A DNA stretch of 57,492 nucleotides from an uncultured Planctomycetales bacterium (GTDB lineage Bacteria > Omnitrophota > Gorgyraeia > Gygaellales > Profunditerraquicolaceae): positions 1 to 57,492 of the forward strand of contig CAZJFL010000010.1 in the NCBI GenBank assembly GCA_964545575.1. Reading direction: 5' to 3'. Numbering within the stretch: the first letter of the stretch is position 1; each line of letters begins with the position of its first letter. Position numbers and translations under genes: made by a program. Positions 15,598 to 56,993 of the stretch are shown in pieces. A model generated the notes under the pieces. That model ran no database searches. It saw nothing but the letters and a program-made list of their open reading frames with translations, and was not told the origin of the DNA.

Positions 15598-16794
15598 TTA
15601 AAATATAATTACGAGGCGGGCACCGGCAACCAGGTAAGTGCCGGAATGCTTTTCGGCTTGGGGATGCGTGACCACCTCCATATTGGGGATAAACTTGACA
15701 AAAGGATGCAGGCTAATGTTGTAGTAAACCTCATATAGGGTTTCGGCTGATCCTGACTCATTGGCAATACGGTAATCCTTTCCCGCAATAGACTGCGCTA
15801 CGCCTATCCCGAAGACGTCATCCTTTCTTCCCGGGATGGGCTCGCTCAGCTGGCCGCCCACTGACCAGAAATGTTCAATCTCGCGTACAACTTTATCGGC
15901 GAAACCGTAACGCAGGAATAGCGTAATGCGCCCTGTTACCTGCTGGTCAAAACTTATGCCGAAACCGCGGCTGTTAATTTTTCGTCCCGCTTCATCAATA
16001 CGCTCCAGGCCCTCATGGGCCAAGTGAAAGAGAAAACGGTAATTTCCCTTTAGTTTCCCGATCTGAGGAGAAAAACCTATTTCGCTGATAAATAAAGTCC
16101 CCTGAAAGCAGTTGGTCAGGCCCACGCGGGTAGAAGCTGCCTCCGCGTCAGAGGCGCCAACCTGAAAATAAAACCAGTCTAGCGGCTTGATCCCAGCCAT
16201 AGCCCCCAGGCCTTTTGAGGGAAAAGGAACGGTCAAGTTGTTGACCAGGGCGCCGGCCTGAAACTGGGTATCGTTGAGAGCCGCGACTTCATTATAATCA
16301 AACCAGTTAGAGAGGTCTAATCTTCCGGCTGCCAGATACAGTTTATCCGCAAAGAAATTCTGCTGGAGATAAAGTTCAGAAACATATAAATAAGATATCT
16401 CCCAGGCATTATAATTCAGGATAGAAAAATTAGGCAGCCGCTTATCTATCCCCAAATTATGGCCTCCTTCGATTTCAAAGGCCGCTAAGCCTCCCTTCCA
16501 GAGCTTCTGCTCCAGGCCAATATTGTAATACCAGGCCGGGCTCCATTTGCCCTGATGTATTTTGGAATGCGTTGCAACCTGACTCTGAGAGTTAATTATT
16601 ACCGCAAAAGTGGTGCCGTATTTATCCTCCCACTCCTTCCTGAAGTTTTGTAATTTTCCCGGCCAGCCTTTTAGCTCTAGCTCTGTTTCTGCTTCTTTCT
16701 CGGACTCGACAGATAATTGAAAGGGGATCTCCGCGGCAAAAGCAAGATGAAAAGATAAACATGCGGCTGTAGCAAGAATAAATATTTTCTTCAT
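15598..16794 (-). CDS. Carbohydrate-selective porin, OprB family
   Basis: Signal peptide, ELYLQQ, E.LYEVYYNI, C-terminal Phe. Confidence 0.8.
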   Translation of the reverse strand: MKKIFILATAACLSFHLAFAAEIPFQLSVESEKEAETELELKGWPGKLQNFRKEWEDKYGTTFAVIINSQSQVATHSKIHQGKWSPAWYYNIGLEQKLWKGGLAAFEIEGGHNLGIDKRLPNFSILNYNAWEISYLYVSELYLQQNFFADKLYLAAGRLDLSNWFDYNEVAALNDTQFQAGALVNNLTVPFPSKGLGAMAGIKPLDWFYFQVGASDAEAASTRVGLTNCFQGTLFISEIGFSPQIGKLKGNYRFLFHLAHEGLERIDEAGRKINSRGFGISFDQQVTGRITLFLRYGFADKVVREIEHFWSVGGQLSEPIPGRKDDVFGIGVAQSIAGKDYRIANESGSAETLYEVYYNISLHPFVKFIPNMEVVTHPQAEKHSGTYLVAGARLVIIF

Positions 16795-24817: not shown

Positions 24818-27727
24818 CTACCGGAGTTCCGCCGAAGGGCAAATCTGGTTATAGGCGCAGTATTTGCAGGCGTTATAACCCGGCTTAGCGGCAAAGCTTC
24901 TTTTACGGATACCTGCCGAAGCCTGGCGGATATCCTCTTTTACCTTCTCCATATCCGACTCGTCCTTGGTATCAGATCCGATCAGTCCCGATTCCAGGAA
25001 ATATAACTGGACGCTCCGGGGCAGTTCCCCGAAAATATTCTGATAGGCCAGAGAATACAAAGCAAGCTGGGTGCTTTCTCTGGTGCGCTTATCAGCCTCC
25101 TCCTGCTTCTTAAGCTGCGAAGTCTTAAAATCTATGATCACTATGCCATCTTTTTCCTGATCCACGCGGTCAAAACGGCCGCGGATTTTATTGTTTTCAA
25201 AAATAAAGAAAAAGTCTTTTTCAATGTAGAGCGGTTTGGCATTACGCTTCTCTTCTGCGTTATAAAATCTAACCAGCGCCTCCTGCCCCACCCGAAAACG
25301 CTCCTCCTGATGCAGCGGGTTAATGAAGCCCTGCGGGTCAAAGCTTTCTTTAAAAACACCCAATAAATCCGCCAGCTCCATTTTCCTACCGCTGGCCTTA
25401 AACTGGAAATATTTAGTCACCGCCGTATGCATTGCCCGGCCGTAAATAATCGTATGGTGCTCCATAATCGGCACGCGCAAGACATGCACGTATTTATATT
25501 TTAAAGGGCAGGTAAGATAGTCATCTATCTGATAGAAGCTTAAGGGAAGCAGTTCCCCCGGAGGTATTTCTTGGCGTGCGGCTTTGCTCGAGTCTTTGTG
25601 CGGGGCAAAACGCTTAATCGTCTCCAGGGCGCTTATCTTAAGCTTCTCTTTTTCTTTAATCCCCTCTCCCAGGGCCTCGATAATAAAAGGGCTGACCCGG
25701 CGCATGCGCGCTCCGCCGTAATCTACCGCCGAAGTCAGATAAAGCTGGCACTTGGCGCGGGTCATGCCTACATAAAATAAGCGGCGCTCTTCCTGGGTAT
25801 GAAAATCTCCCTGCGGAAGGATCTCTTTGATCAAGGCATCCGGCAGCTCTACGGATTGCCTGCGATGCGGCACAGGAAAACGCCCGTTGACCAAACTCAC
25901 CATAAAAACCAGGCTAAACTCCAGACCCTTTGCTTTATGGATGGTCAGCACATTCACCGCATCGCTATCAAGGTCAGCCATTGCGGTTTCCGGGTCGTCT
26001 CCGGCTTCGATTAAAAGGTCCAGATAATTCACAAAACTGATCACCCGGTCCTCTCTGGCAATCAACTCGAAATCACGCACGATATTGAAAAATTTGGCGA
26101 TATTCTGGATTTGTGTTTCTTTTTCAAGGTTCAAATCCCGGGTGAGTTTTTTCAGGTAGCCGGTTTCGGTCAGAAAGGCATATAAGAGCCTTCCGGTAGC
26201 CTCCCGGCGCGAAATTTGCAAAAACTTATCCAAATCAGCTAGGATCTGGCTGATTTTTTCGCGGGATTTTTCGCTCACTTCGGCTAACTCCGGGATTGCG
26301 GCTGTACCCTTTAAAACTGAATGCAAGGTTTTATTTCTACGCTTGGCATAATACATACACAAGGTTAAATCCGAAAGATCTAGGCCGTAAATTTGGCTGC
26401 TGGCCAGATAATAGAGGCCTAGCGAATCCGAAGGATTAGCCACTACGCGCAAAAAATTAATACATAACTTTACCTCTTCCCTGCTGTAGAGGCCCTGGTT
26501 ACCGCTGAATTGCCAGGGAATCCCCAGCATATTCAACGCCTGCAGATAAGGTTGGGCATCTGAATTAGAACGCACCAGTATCGCAAAATCCTTATACTGA
26601 AATTTTTTGGCTTTCACTTTTTCTTTAATAGTTTCGGCAATCCAGTCCGATTCTCCGGAATTATTATCAAAATGTTCGTGTTTAGGGGGTTCGCCTTTTT
26701 CGCTTAAGCCGATCAGCTTTTTATTAATCCCCGCCTTGACTTCAAAGCGTTCGGGATTATTGTTCTGAATAAGTTTATAGGCGCTGTCTAAGAGTGGCTG
26801 GTGCGAGCGGTAATTCCGGATCAGGCTTACCTTTTTTGCCTCGGGAAAACTATCCATGAAATTTAAGACGTTGCTGTAGGCGGCTCCGCGCCAGCGGTAA
26901 ATGCACTGGTCGTCATCTGCTACCACCGCAATATTCTTGTTTTCCCCTGCCAGGAACTTTACCATTTGAAACTGGGCAAAATTAGTATCCTGAAACTCAT
27001 CGACCAGAATATATTTAAATTGCTTCTGGTAATTCTTTAAGATTAAGGGATGAGCGCGTAAAAGATTGAGGCTCAAATAAAACTGGTTGCCGAAATCTAC
27101 CGCGCCGTATTTCATTAACAGTTCCTGATATTTGGCGTAGGCCTCTGCCAATTCCATCTGCTGCCGGGCTTCTTCCTGCAGCGCTTCGTCTTTGGGGTCA
27201 GCTTTGGCTTTCAGGACTAAGCCTTGGGTGTAATTAAAGTATTCCTTAGGAGATATATCTTCGTCTTTGGCGCGGCTAAATAAAGATATCAACGCCTCAA
27301 CAAACTTAGTCGGATCTGAAAGCGGACGGTAATACTCTAAGTCAAACTCAAAGATACGCTCGCGCAAAAATACCGCGGATTCCGGGCGGGTTAAAACCTT
27401 AAAATCCGGCTCCATGCCGGCGATCAGGGCGTTTTCCCGCAAAAGCCGGTCGCCAAAGGCGTGAAAGGTAGAAATCCAGATATCGGTGTATCCGTAAGGC
27501 ACCAGTACATCCACCCGCTCCAACATCTGCAATGCCGCCTTATCGGTAAATGTGAGCGCTAAAATTTCGTTGGTTTTCGCGAGGTTTTCGGATAAAAGCC
27601 AGGCAATGCGGCGGGTGATAACCGTAGTCTTTCCGGTCCCCGCGCCGGCAATAATCAGCAGCGGACCATCTTTGTGTGTGACCGCCTCGAGTTGCTCTTT
27701 GTTCAAACCTTCTAATATTTTATTCAT
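24818..27727 (-). CDS. UvrD/PcrA-family helicase fused to a PD-(D/E)XK nuclease with four Cys (Fe-S)
   Basis: AGAGTGKT, DEFQD, TIHKAKGLEF, EERRLFYV; TCP...GRFDR...IDFKT...QLALY...CKYCAYNQIC. Confidence 0.92.
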   Translation of the reverse strand: MNKILEGLNKEQLEAVTHKDGPLLIIAGAGTGKTTVITRRIAWLLSENLAKTNEILALTFTDKAALQMLERVDVLVPYGYTDIWISTFHAFGDRLLRENALIAGMEPDFKVLTRPESAVFLRERIFEFDLEYYRPLSDPTKFVEALISLFSRAKDEDISPKEYFNYTQGLVLKAKADPKDEALQEEARQQMELAEAYAKYQELLMKYGAVDFGNQFYLSLNLLRAHPLILKNYQKQFKYILVDEFQDTNFAQFQMVKFLAGENKNIAVVADDDQCIYRWRGAAYSNVLNFMDSFPEAKKVSLIRNYRSHQPLLDSAYKLIQNNNPERFEVKAGINKKLIGLSEKGEPPKHEHFDNNSGESDWIAETIKEKVKAKKFQYKDFAILVRSNSDAQPYLQALNMLGIPWQFSGNQGLYSREEVKLCINFLRVVANPSDSLGLYYLASSQIYGLDLSDLTLCMYYAKRRNKTLHSVLKGTAAIPELAEVSEKSREKISQILADLDKFLQISRREATGRLLYAFLTETGYLKKLTRDLNLEKETQIQNIAKFFNIVRDFELIAREDRVISFVNYLDLLIEAGDDPETAMADLDSDAVNVLTIHKAKGLEFSLVFMVSLVNGRFPVPHRRQSVELPDALIKEILPQGDFHTQEERRLFYVGMTRAKCQLYLTSAVDYGGARMRRVSPFIIEALGEGIKEKEKLKISALETIKRFAPHKDSSKAARQEIPPGELLPLSFYQIDDYLTCPLKYKYVHVLRVPIMEHHTIIYGRAMHTAVTKYFQFKASGRKMELADLLGVFKESFDPQGFINPLHQEERFRVGQEALVRFYNAEEKRNAKPLYIEKDFFFIFENNKIRGRFDRVDQEKDGIVIIDFKTSQLKKQEEADKRTRESTQLALYSLAYQNIFGELPRSVQLYFLESGLIGSDTKDESDMEKVKEDIRQASAGIRKRSFAAKPGYNACKYCAYNQICPSAELR

Positions 27728-27735
27728 ATTCTAGG

Positions 27736-27852
27736 TTTAGCGGGTCCTGCCGCAGAAGGCGGCACACCGGCCCATCCGATAGGGCCGGGTGTTGTCTTAA
27801 CCAGTTTCTCTCGGGAGCGCCCTCCTCGAAACATTCCGCGCCACCCGCTAAA
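27736..27852. repeat. Palindromic element (TAGCGGGT...ACCCGCTA family) containing one 45-nt unit
   Basis: Terminal inverted repeat TTTAGCGGGT/ACCCGCTAAA; relative at 56841-56906. Confidence 0.75.
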
Positions 27853-27871
27853 GATAAATTAAACTATCAAG

Positions 27872-39487: not shown

Positions 39488-39514
39488 GGGACAGTCCCCT
39501 TCGGGGACAGTCCC
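39488..39514. repeat. Pair of GGGACAGTCCC palindromes
   Basis: Two copies here, two more at 56921 and 56959. Confidence 0.7.
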
Positions 39515-43534: not shown

Positions 43535-44212
43535 TTATTGAGCCTTCCTATAAAATGATAACGCGGTGTCGCCGTATCTGTTTTGCTTGAATAAACTTAA
43601 AACTCCCAGAGTGTCTGGGAGGTTTTCTTTCTTAAAGTGCTGCACTACTACCAAGCCGTAAGGCGCTAATATATCATAAGCGGCCAGGGTTTGCAAGGTT
43701 TTTTTTGCTGCAGAAGGCAGCATACCAATCCATCCTTTAGGATTGGGTGTTGTCGCAGAAAGCGACACACCAAACGATCCTATACGTTTGGGTGCTACCG
43801 CAGAAAGCGGTACACCGAACCATCCGATAGGTTCGGGTGTTGCCAGACTACTATGATACGGAGGGTCTAAAAAGATCAGATCAAAGGTCCTGCCGTTCAT
43901 TTCAAGCGCCTTTATTGCCTCTGGCGCATCTTTCTGGTATAAACGGCAGTTTTGAAGCTTCAGTGAGGCGATATTTTTCTGAATTGCCAGCACGCAATCA
44001 CGGTCAGACTCCACAAAAGTAAGGTCCCTGGCCCCCCGCGAAAGGGCCTCCAGGCCCACCGCGCCTGAGCCGGCGTATAGTTCTAAGAAAGACAATCCTT
44101 CTATATCTCCCAGGATATCGAATATGGCCTTCCTGACCAAATTCTGCGTTGGCCTTATTCCTTTGGGCATGCTAATATTACGCCCTTTATATTTACCGGT
44201 AAGTATACGCAT
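43535..44212 (-). CDS. rsmD: 16S rRNA m2G966 methyltransferase with 45-aa repeat insertion
   Basis: IRPT, ELYAGSGAVGLEALSRGA, DPPY; recG-rsmD-coaD context. Confidence 0.9.
   Translation of the reverse strand: MRILTGKYKGRNISMPKGIRPTQNLVRKAIFDILGDIEGLSFLELYAGSGAVGLEALSRGARDLTFVESDRDCVLAIQKNIASLKLQNCRLYQKDAPEAIKALEMNGRTFDLIFLDPPYHSSLATPEPIGWFGVPLSAVAPKRIGSFGVSLSATTPNPKGWIGMLPSAAKKTLQTLAAYDILAPYGLVVVQHFKKENLPDTLGVLSLFKQNRYGDTALSFYRKAQ
43706..43840. repeat. 3 x 45-nt tandem double-hairpin repeat, in frame in rsmD
   Basis: Units start at 43706, 43751 and 43796; homolog at 27748-27792. Confidence 0.9.
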
Positions 44213-53498: not shown

Positions 53499-53542
53499 AC
53501 ACCCAGCCCTCGGATGGGCCAGTGCCCCGCCCTCCTGCGGGG
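53499..53542 (-). repeat. Diverged copy of the 45-nt double-hairpin unit
   Basis: CCCCGC-AGGAGG-GCGGGG CACT GGCCC ATCCGA GGGCT GGGTGT. Confidence 0.65.
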
Positions 53543-56906: not shown

Positions 56907-56993
56907 AGCAGTTCAAATCAGGGACAGTCCCCTGGGTTTGGAGTAAACAATAACTGCGGGGACAGTCCCTACTTAAGCGAGTAAATCGGCAGG

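Follow-up and report, generated by a model that had tools for sequence, protein, structure and literature searches.

Why does an intact gene for a universally conserved enzyme carry, beside its catalytic motif, three tandem copies of a 45-nt double hairpin, and what kind of element are these copies? The question is posed by a 57,492-nt stretch of DNA from an uncultured Omnitrophota bacterium, referred to below as the window. Its rsmD gene encodes the 16S rRNA m2G966 methyltransferase, and the array inside that gene was originally predicted, from the sequence alone, to be an element able to build arrays in coding DNA. The features concerned are listed here, with scores against the covariance model R1 described below.

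43535..44212, minus strand: rsmD, 16S rRNA m2G966 methyltransferase gene, an intact ORF of 225 aa that contains the array
43706..43750, plus strand (model orientation; rsmD reads it antisense): array unit 1, R1 64.1 bits, E 4.7e-15, peptide TPNPKGWIGMLPSAA
43751..43795, plus strand: array unit 2, R1 66.6 bits, peptide APKRIGSFGVSLSAT
43796..43840, plus strand: array unit 3, R1 68.1 bits, peptide TPEPIGWFGVPLSAV

The array within rsmD

The rsmD product matches Pfam family PF03602 (E 1.5e-47) as two segments, one on each side of the insert, and scores 144.2 bits against the RsmD equivalog model TIGR00095, for which the cut-off is 117.5. Tandem Repeats Finder (TRF) places a single array at 43705-43844, with a period of 45, 3.1 copies, 75% matches, 0% indels and a score of 161. 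Its 135 nt correspond to RsmD residues 125-169, and thus the predicted three tandem units of exact 45-nt period, adding about 45 residues just past the DPPY motif, are all found. That motif, D116-P-P-Y119, is invariant in 28 RsmD sequences; the array begins five residues beyond it, in the passage from strand beta-4, where DPPY lies, to the following helix. An AlphaFold2 model sets the insert between strand 110-115 and helix 168-178, with a pLDDT above 94 for the core and about 50 for insert residues 121-160, which show no secondary structure. No Pfam family matches the insert.

Six hairpins form when the array is folded; the z-score is -6.4 for the sense RNA and -7.8 for DNA, and 0 of 200 shuffled sequences folded equally well. 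Compared with the commonest stems, each of the three units has a single compensated pair change per stem, in A and in B alike, and the pair that has changed differs by unit. Each unit has 33-35 of 45 positions in common with its neighbours in the array, versus 34-39 of 45 with copies dispersed elsewhere. Because the three units are not one another's nearest relatives, recent slippage is rejected as the origin of the array, which upholds the original view that it did not arise by simple slippage.

The three-unit array recurs unchanged in contigs assembled from two other lake-water runs (X3 record 12 and X4 record 20). A diverged contig of X3 lacks 43706-43856, with 14 other letters in place of that segment; it probably comes from another organism. 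Contigs of further samples, in which rare variants are dropped, showed no array-length variant of this strain.

Unit architecture and covariation

The unit is 45 nt long in 28 of 57 examples and 43-46 nt long in 52 of the 57. Hairpin A consists of a 6-bp stem and an AGAAG-type loop. Hairpin B has a CACC/GGGTG base with a bulged G, then a variable stem of 5 bp, then a ATCCGATA-type loop. The stem pairs quoted in the prediction for the three rsmD units and for the copy at 27748 are all present as written. The accompanying claim that structure rather than sequence is conserved holds for the covarying stems but must be qualified, since both loops, as well as the CACC/GGGTG base with its bulged G, are conserved as sequence also.

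Model R1 was built from 20 ungapped 45-nt units. In that alignment 97.4% of cells are paired and double changes occur at 11 of 15 pairs, whereas only 34-47% of cells are paired in a control in which the partners were slid by one to three columns. When copies from relatives are included, 55 distinct units are 98.2% paired and show double changes at 12 of 15 pairs. The paired cells comprise 768 Watson-Crick pairs versus 14 G.T and 7 A.C; the last two counts are too few to decide, from wobble asymmetry, which strand is under selection.

Searches against Rfam, at gathering thresholds or at E<=10, returned no family matching the units. The GT(A/G)G or CGTC head is absent from the consensus of 40 units and from that of 20. 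The unit has no terminal inverted repeats, and neither a target duplication nor a clear target motif could be defined, the flanks of about 45 copies having no consensus. Each of the six reading frames is free of stop codons in 35-48 of 57 units; the frame in which rsmD reads the array is stop-free in 42 of them.

Copies in the genome and among relatives

A search with a profile of the four window copies added about 40 more, spread over 13 of the 18 contigs. The scan with R1 gave 45 matches at E<=0.001 in this 1.48-Mb genome (designated G000), several of them identical in sequence, so that the further genome-wide copies expected of a dispersed element do exist. Two units in the window lie between genes.

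27748..27792, plus strand: intergenic unit, R1 71.2 bits, within a composite of about 125 nt
53499..53542, minus strand: diverged intergenic unit, R1 39.9 bits, E 3.8e-8

The second of these had been proposed as a fifth, diverged copy, and its score bears this out.

Among 41 related genomes, 28 have R1 matches, with 0-87 copies per genome. The positive genomes include 21 of 24 from other genera of the same family and 6 of 16 from other families in the order. When 121 genomes sampled evenly across the phylum were scanned, 8 were positive at E<=1e-5; these were five of the seven genomes from the same family together with members of two other families of the class, one genome having 28 copies. 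Because of this distribution across relatives and phylum, the repeat family must be viewed as old and patchy, and as amplified in some lineages. Named database homologs of the RsmD protein all come from Candidatus Omnitrophica/Omnitrophota. A literature search on palindromic repeats and REPINs of Omnitrophota found no description of the unit family.

A recurrently invaded loop in RsmD

Of 28 aligned orthologs, 23 have no insert at the rsmD site: DPPYYx-GLA-KKTLQ runs uninterrupted in them, and there is accordingly no conserved protein loop at this position. The junction in the DNA of G000 falls exactly between a run of eight T (the antisense of two Lys codons) and an Ala codon, with an ambiguous overlap of 3-4 nt and without clear duplication. 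One relative, G010, has a single R1 unit at this same junction. The insert in G015 is a hairpin with a similar loop, and G012, G028 and G018 have unrelated inserts at the same position.

The best 120 database homologs of RsmD were taken, and 116 of these could be parsed. No insert is found in 57 of the 116. Unit-encoded peptides occupy the same loop in 27 (13 with one, nine with two and five with three), some of which have an extra segment inside a unit, and other types of insert occur in about 30. Unit number therefore varies among RsmD homologs from 0 to 3, as the prediction had anticipated. Since unit peptides, hairpins and unrelated inserts all occur there, the loop past DPPY has been invaded recurrently by several types of element. 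A scan of metagenomes for RsmD yielded 80 mostly distant genes (29-51% identity), which were left out of these counts.

In other lineages, three or more further types of insert recur in this loop (P0016, P0023, P0026-P0029, P0088, P0115 and others). One of these types is a tandem 14-residue unit, present once in P0088 and twice in P0115.

In-frame insertions in other genes

Ten of 47 units lie inside coding regions. In ValRS, residues 645-673 are an in-frame insert made of one unit nested in another, and this insert is absent from all eight of eight orthologs. MalQ (4-alpha-glucanotransferase) has an in-frame composite of 78 nt; an ORF of 4070 aa (C7:77387-89599) has a unit in frame; a ThiI-like protein has one in frame in its C-terminal tail; and an ORF of 68,605 aa has two in-frame repeat insertions. 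An RRM-type RNA-binding protein of 230 aa (L093, G000:C8:10147-13362) gives a weak R1 match in its low-complexity tail. The unit is translated as xPxPIGWxGVPxSAx in reverse orientation and as APAEGxAPxxPIxxGA in forward orientation. With other head-to-tail arrays, nested copies and in-frame coding insertions all present, the idea that the element can build arrays in coding DNA is supported.

The largest of these frames lies outside the window on the minus strand (G000:C1:129218-335035) and runs uninterrupted for 68,605 codons, free of any N.

Nesting, composites and a second palindrome

In four places one unit lies within the hairpin-B loop of another, and in three of the four the nested unit is placed exactly behind the first two bases of the loop. 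Arrays are direct, head-to-tail repeats; one inverted pair of units was found (C3:97194/97251). A longer arrangement, which has an R1 unit as its core and also contains a third covarying hairpin, occurs three times.

window, about 27735-27860: composite of about 125 nt with inverted ends TTTAGCGGGT / ACCCGCTAAA
contig C9, about 16275-16400: the same composite
contig C6, about 95950-96070: the same composite

A start codon follows each of the three composites at a distance of 8-12 nt. The genes in question are unrelated, being a helicase-nuclease gene, a decarboxylase gene and mreB; the first of these, which the window composite directly precedes, is UvrD/AddA-like (24818..27727, minus strand). 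A riboswitch reading of the composite is unlikely, because its three copies precede unrelated genes.

A different palindrome, GGGAC(A/T)GTCCC, has 38 matches genome-wide, including those in the window at 39488-39514 and 56921-56969. It is mostly paired, the two boxes being separated by 4-5 nt, by some 27 nt of variable sequence or by an R1 unit with a spacer; several near-identical R1 copies are bracketed in this way. Some pairs of boxes are in frame within genes, as in ValRS at C2:97207-97233, and TAG precedes some of the palindromes. GGGAC(A/T)GTCCC looks like a second small element, or else a duplicated target.

A mobile repeat and its candidate enzymes

The unit family is dispersed, varies in copy number and is present or absent at orthologous sites; its members form head-to-tail arrays, nest within one another and keep Watson-Crick pairing through compensated changes. 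On these grounds we firmly read it as a mobile, REP-like element. The rsmD array is probably three units of such a repeat, small, non-autonomous and belonging to the Omnitrophota, carried in frame in a permissive surface loop of RsmD. A whole unit of 45 nt adds 15 codons and so leaves the reading frame intact; with the frame kept, and with most units stop-free in the frame used by rsmD, units that land where a loop tolerates them persist as additional peptide (xPxPIGWxGVPxSAx). Arrays might grow by insertion of one unit beside another or by unequal exchange.

In this mobile-repeat reading, a RAYT-type Y1 HUH enzyme would recognise the hairpins in single-stranded DNA, as happens with REP and REPIN sequences. 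By analogy with those systems, it is quite possible, if short of probable, that such an enzyme recognises or moves the units. G000 encodes two RAYT-type proteins of 173 and 160 aa, at L001 (G000:C8:45730-49071) and L002 (G000:C13:4195-7527), whose best NCBIfam match is NF047646 (REP-associated tyrosine transposase) with 86 and 79 bits against a cut-off of 80. Both genes are flanked by inverted GGGAC-box palindromes, and at L002 the palindrome occurs twice, identically, on one side. R1 units flank neither gene, the best match being 12.5 bits (E 0.011). A RAYT gene with flanking units, which the prediction had proposed to look for, is thus not found in G000 but does occur in one relative: on either side of the RAYT gene of G005:C8 lie the arms of a 74-nt inverted repeat (91% complementary), in which GGGAC boxes are combined with hairpin A of the unit, and two full units lie on one side of that locus. 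Overall, with about 1-3 kb of flank scanned, a strong R1 match was found at 2 of 23 RAYT loci. The flanks in this bacterial family carry other palindromes, and one of the two R1-matching loci, L101 (G018:C5:118400-120800), is surrounded by at least ten copies of the palindrome AAGACC(C/G)GGTCTT, AAGACCGGGTCTT; the RAYTs of the family therefore have diverse cognate repeats.

Co-occurrence over the 41 genomes showed no useful association, a Y1 gene being found in 21 of 28 R1-positive versus 8 of 13 R1-negative genomes. In G023, which is 94% complete and has 12 R1 copies, no Y1 match was found.

The 21 RAYT loci without a strong unit nearby, and the other palindromes at RAYT flanks, would suit a different account, in which the units are mobile through another enzyme, such as a small GIY-YIG nuclease or an unrecognised protein, or through replication template switching at hairpins, with the RAYTs serving only other palindromes, GGGAC-box included. 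A gene for an 82-aa GIY-YIG protein (C8:11647-11862) does lie some 210 nt downstream of an R1 match (E 2.6e-7). However, this is only one of three small GIY-YIG genes: no unit was found within the loci, of about 3.2 kb, of the other two or of a fourth hit in a 431-aa frame. No protein consistently adjoins the units, and the G005 inverted repeat does include the unit. We consider this account possible but doubtful.

RNA, self-docking and peptide alternatives

Outside genes, the units sit in short spacers, mostly between co-directional genes. Five unit loci are flush against GGAGG-type ribosome-binding sites, and 29 of 41 assignable units (about 70%, by a crude ORF model) share one orientation relative to transcription. 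These placements, together with loop sequences kept across genera, are what would be expected if the unit were primarily an RNA module, a hairpin pair that serves as mRNA leader or "punctuation" and to which an RNase or RNA-binding protein attaches, with the rsmD copies as collateral insertions. Near absence of wobble pairs is unusual in selected RNA helices, however, and wobble is almost absent from the units in either orientation. The near-pure Watson-Crick pairing points instead to constraint on DNA hairpins, and under the mobile-repeat reading it is the DNA, not the mRNA, on which the pairing constraint would act. Furthermore, both orientations are present in mRNAs, coding regions included; no Rfam family matches; and an RNA role alone does not explain the spread, the nesting or the arrays. 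We therefore judge a primary RNA function unlikely.

The units could also be a new kind of mobile DNA that works without a RAYT, as a loop-seeking, self-docking hairpin module. Units would then insert beside or into copies of themselves, which would account for the exact-period arrays and for the nesting. A hairpin-templated process would turn single stem changes into compensated pairs, which would explain both the one compensated pair per stem in each rsmD unit and the scarcity of wobble pairs. The rsmD loop past DPPY would be a true insertion hot spot for several unrelated element families. Taken jointly, these three propositions have, in our estimate, a small chance of being right.

It is very improbable that the 15-residue repeat is a selected feature of RsmD, such as an extended loop contacting the 30S subunit, made by slippage and with the hairpins as a by-product: although 27 of the 116 parsed homologs keep one to three of the peptides at this loop, about half have some insert there and the frame is always preserved, the same DNA unit occurs between genes, in the other orientation and in other proteins, the conserved residues are those encoded by conserved DNA motifs while stem-encoded residues vary freely with compensated DNA changes, 57 homologs have no insert and other lineages have unrelated ones at the site, and the insert has neither a Pfam family nor predicted secondary structure (pLDDT about 50).

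Significance

An extragenic location belongs to the definition of REP-type repeats, and Rickettsia is the main source of known palindromic inserts that keep the reading frame; the unit described here combines both. Its setting is an uncultured phylum with compact genomes, in which a universally conserved enzyme displays a countable ladder of zero, one, two or three units. The present work adds the in-frame arrays, the empty sites, the RsmD unit ladder, the nesting, the scarcity of wobble pairs and the mixed result for RAYT genes. The ladder can serve as a simple marker of element activity in metagenomes. The RsmD inserts constitute a natural experiment on how far a methyltransferase loop beside the catalytic motif tolerates foreign peptide, and the unit itself offers a short structured substrate for probing RAYT-type or other enzymes of Omnitrophota. 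Should the self-docking reading be true, the rsmD loop would offer an otherwise rigid enzyme a natural place for evolutionary change in protein length.

Comparison with known systems

REP, BIME and REPIN sequences offer the closest parallels in mode of operation. Like them, the unit is a short, high-copy palindromic repeat with compensatory changes and clustered copies, located mostly in short intra-operon spacers. In published accounts of REP sequences, a RAYT gene is flanked by two inverted repeat copies, the palindromes show compensatory changes, and a conserved GT(A/G)G or CGTC head stands beside the palindrome (Nunvar 2010, PMC2817692; Bertels & Rainey 2011, PMC3116915; Di Nocera 2013, PMC3733652). 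Correspondingly, the genome studied here has RAYT-type genes with inverted palindrome flanks, and in one relative the unit itself flanks a RAYT gene. The differences are several. The unit has two different hairpins and lacks the GT(A/G)G or CGTC head; at 43-46 nt in 52 of 57 examples, it is longer than a single REP of 20-40 bp; its arrays run head to tail at an exact period, one inverted pair aside, where BIMEs alternate in orientation and REPINs are inverted doublets; it occurs in frame inside genes rather than being extragenic; one unit is common to many genera; and the G000 RAYT genes are flanked by other palindromes, not by the unit.

Rickettsia palindromic elements (RPEs), according to a review of MITEs, are palindromic repeats lying in frame in unrelated housekeeping genes, where they encode fold-compatible peptide and insert-free orthologs exist; they are given there as single elements of about 100-150 bp, confined to Rickettsia (PMC10969869). 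The resemblance in coding DNA is close, with units in frame in RsmD, ValRS, MalQ and giant proteins, and with orthologs that have no insert. The unit is set apart from RPEs by description, as a 45-nt repeat of an Omnitrophota host that forms arrays of up to three as well as nested forms, about 80% of its copies being intergenic.

The small dispersed repeats (SDR) of heterocystous cyanobacteria, reportedly described by Elhai et al. in 2008, are said to be very small hairpin repeats that are nested and occasionally lie in genes; we know of no enzyme for them. The unit resembles SDR in its small nested hairpins, some of them in genes, and differs in sequence, size and phylum.

In IS200/IS605 elements, the sub-terminal hairpins are imperfect, have an extra-helical base and are recognised as single-stranded DNA by Y1 transposases (PMC3333891, PMC6006769). 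A unit hairpin is likewise imperfect with an extra-helical base, and seamless excision as in IS200/IS605 would fit the clean empty sites. Unlike those elements, the unit has no transposase between its hairpins and no distinct left and right ends, and no cleavage-site motif was found. Unlike a MITE, it lacks terminal inverted repeats, shows at most the ambiguous 3-4-nt overlap at rsmD, and has no common flank across copies.

By analogy, then, the unit appears to work as REP and REPIN sequences do, and as RPEs do once in coding DNA. It is kept apart as a member of neither because it has no GTAG head, forms direct arrays, is frequently intragenic and is one-third the size of an RPE.
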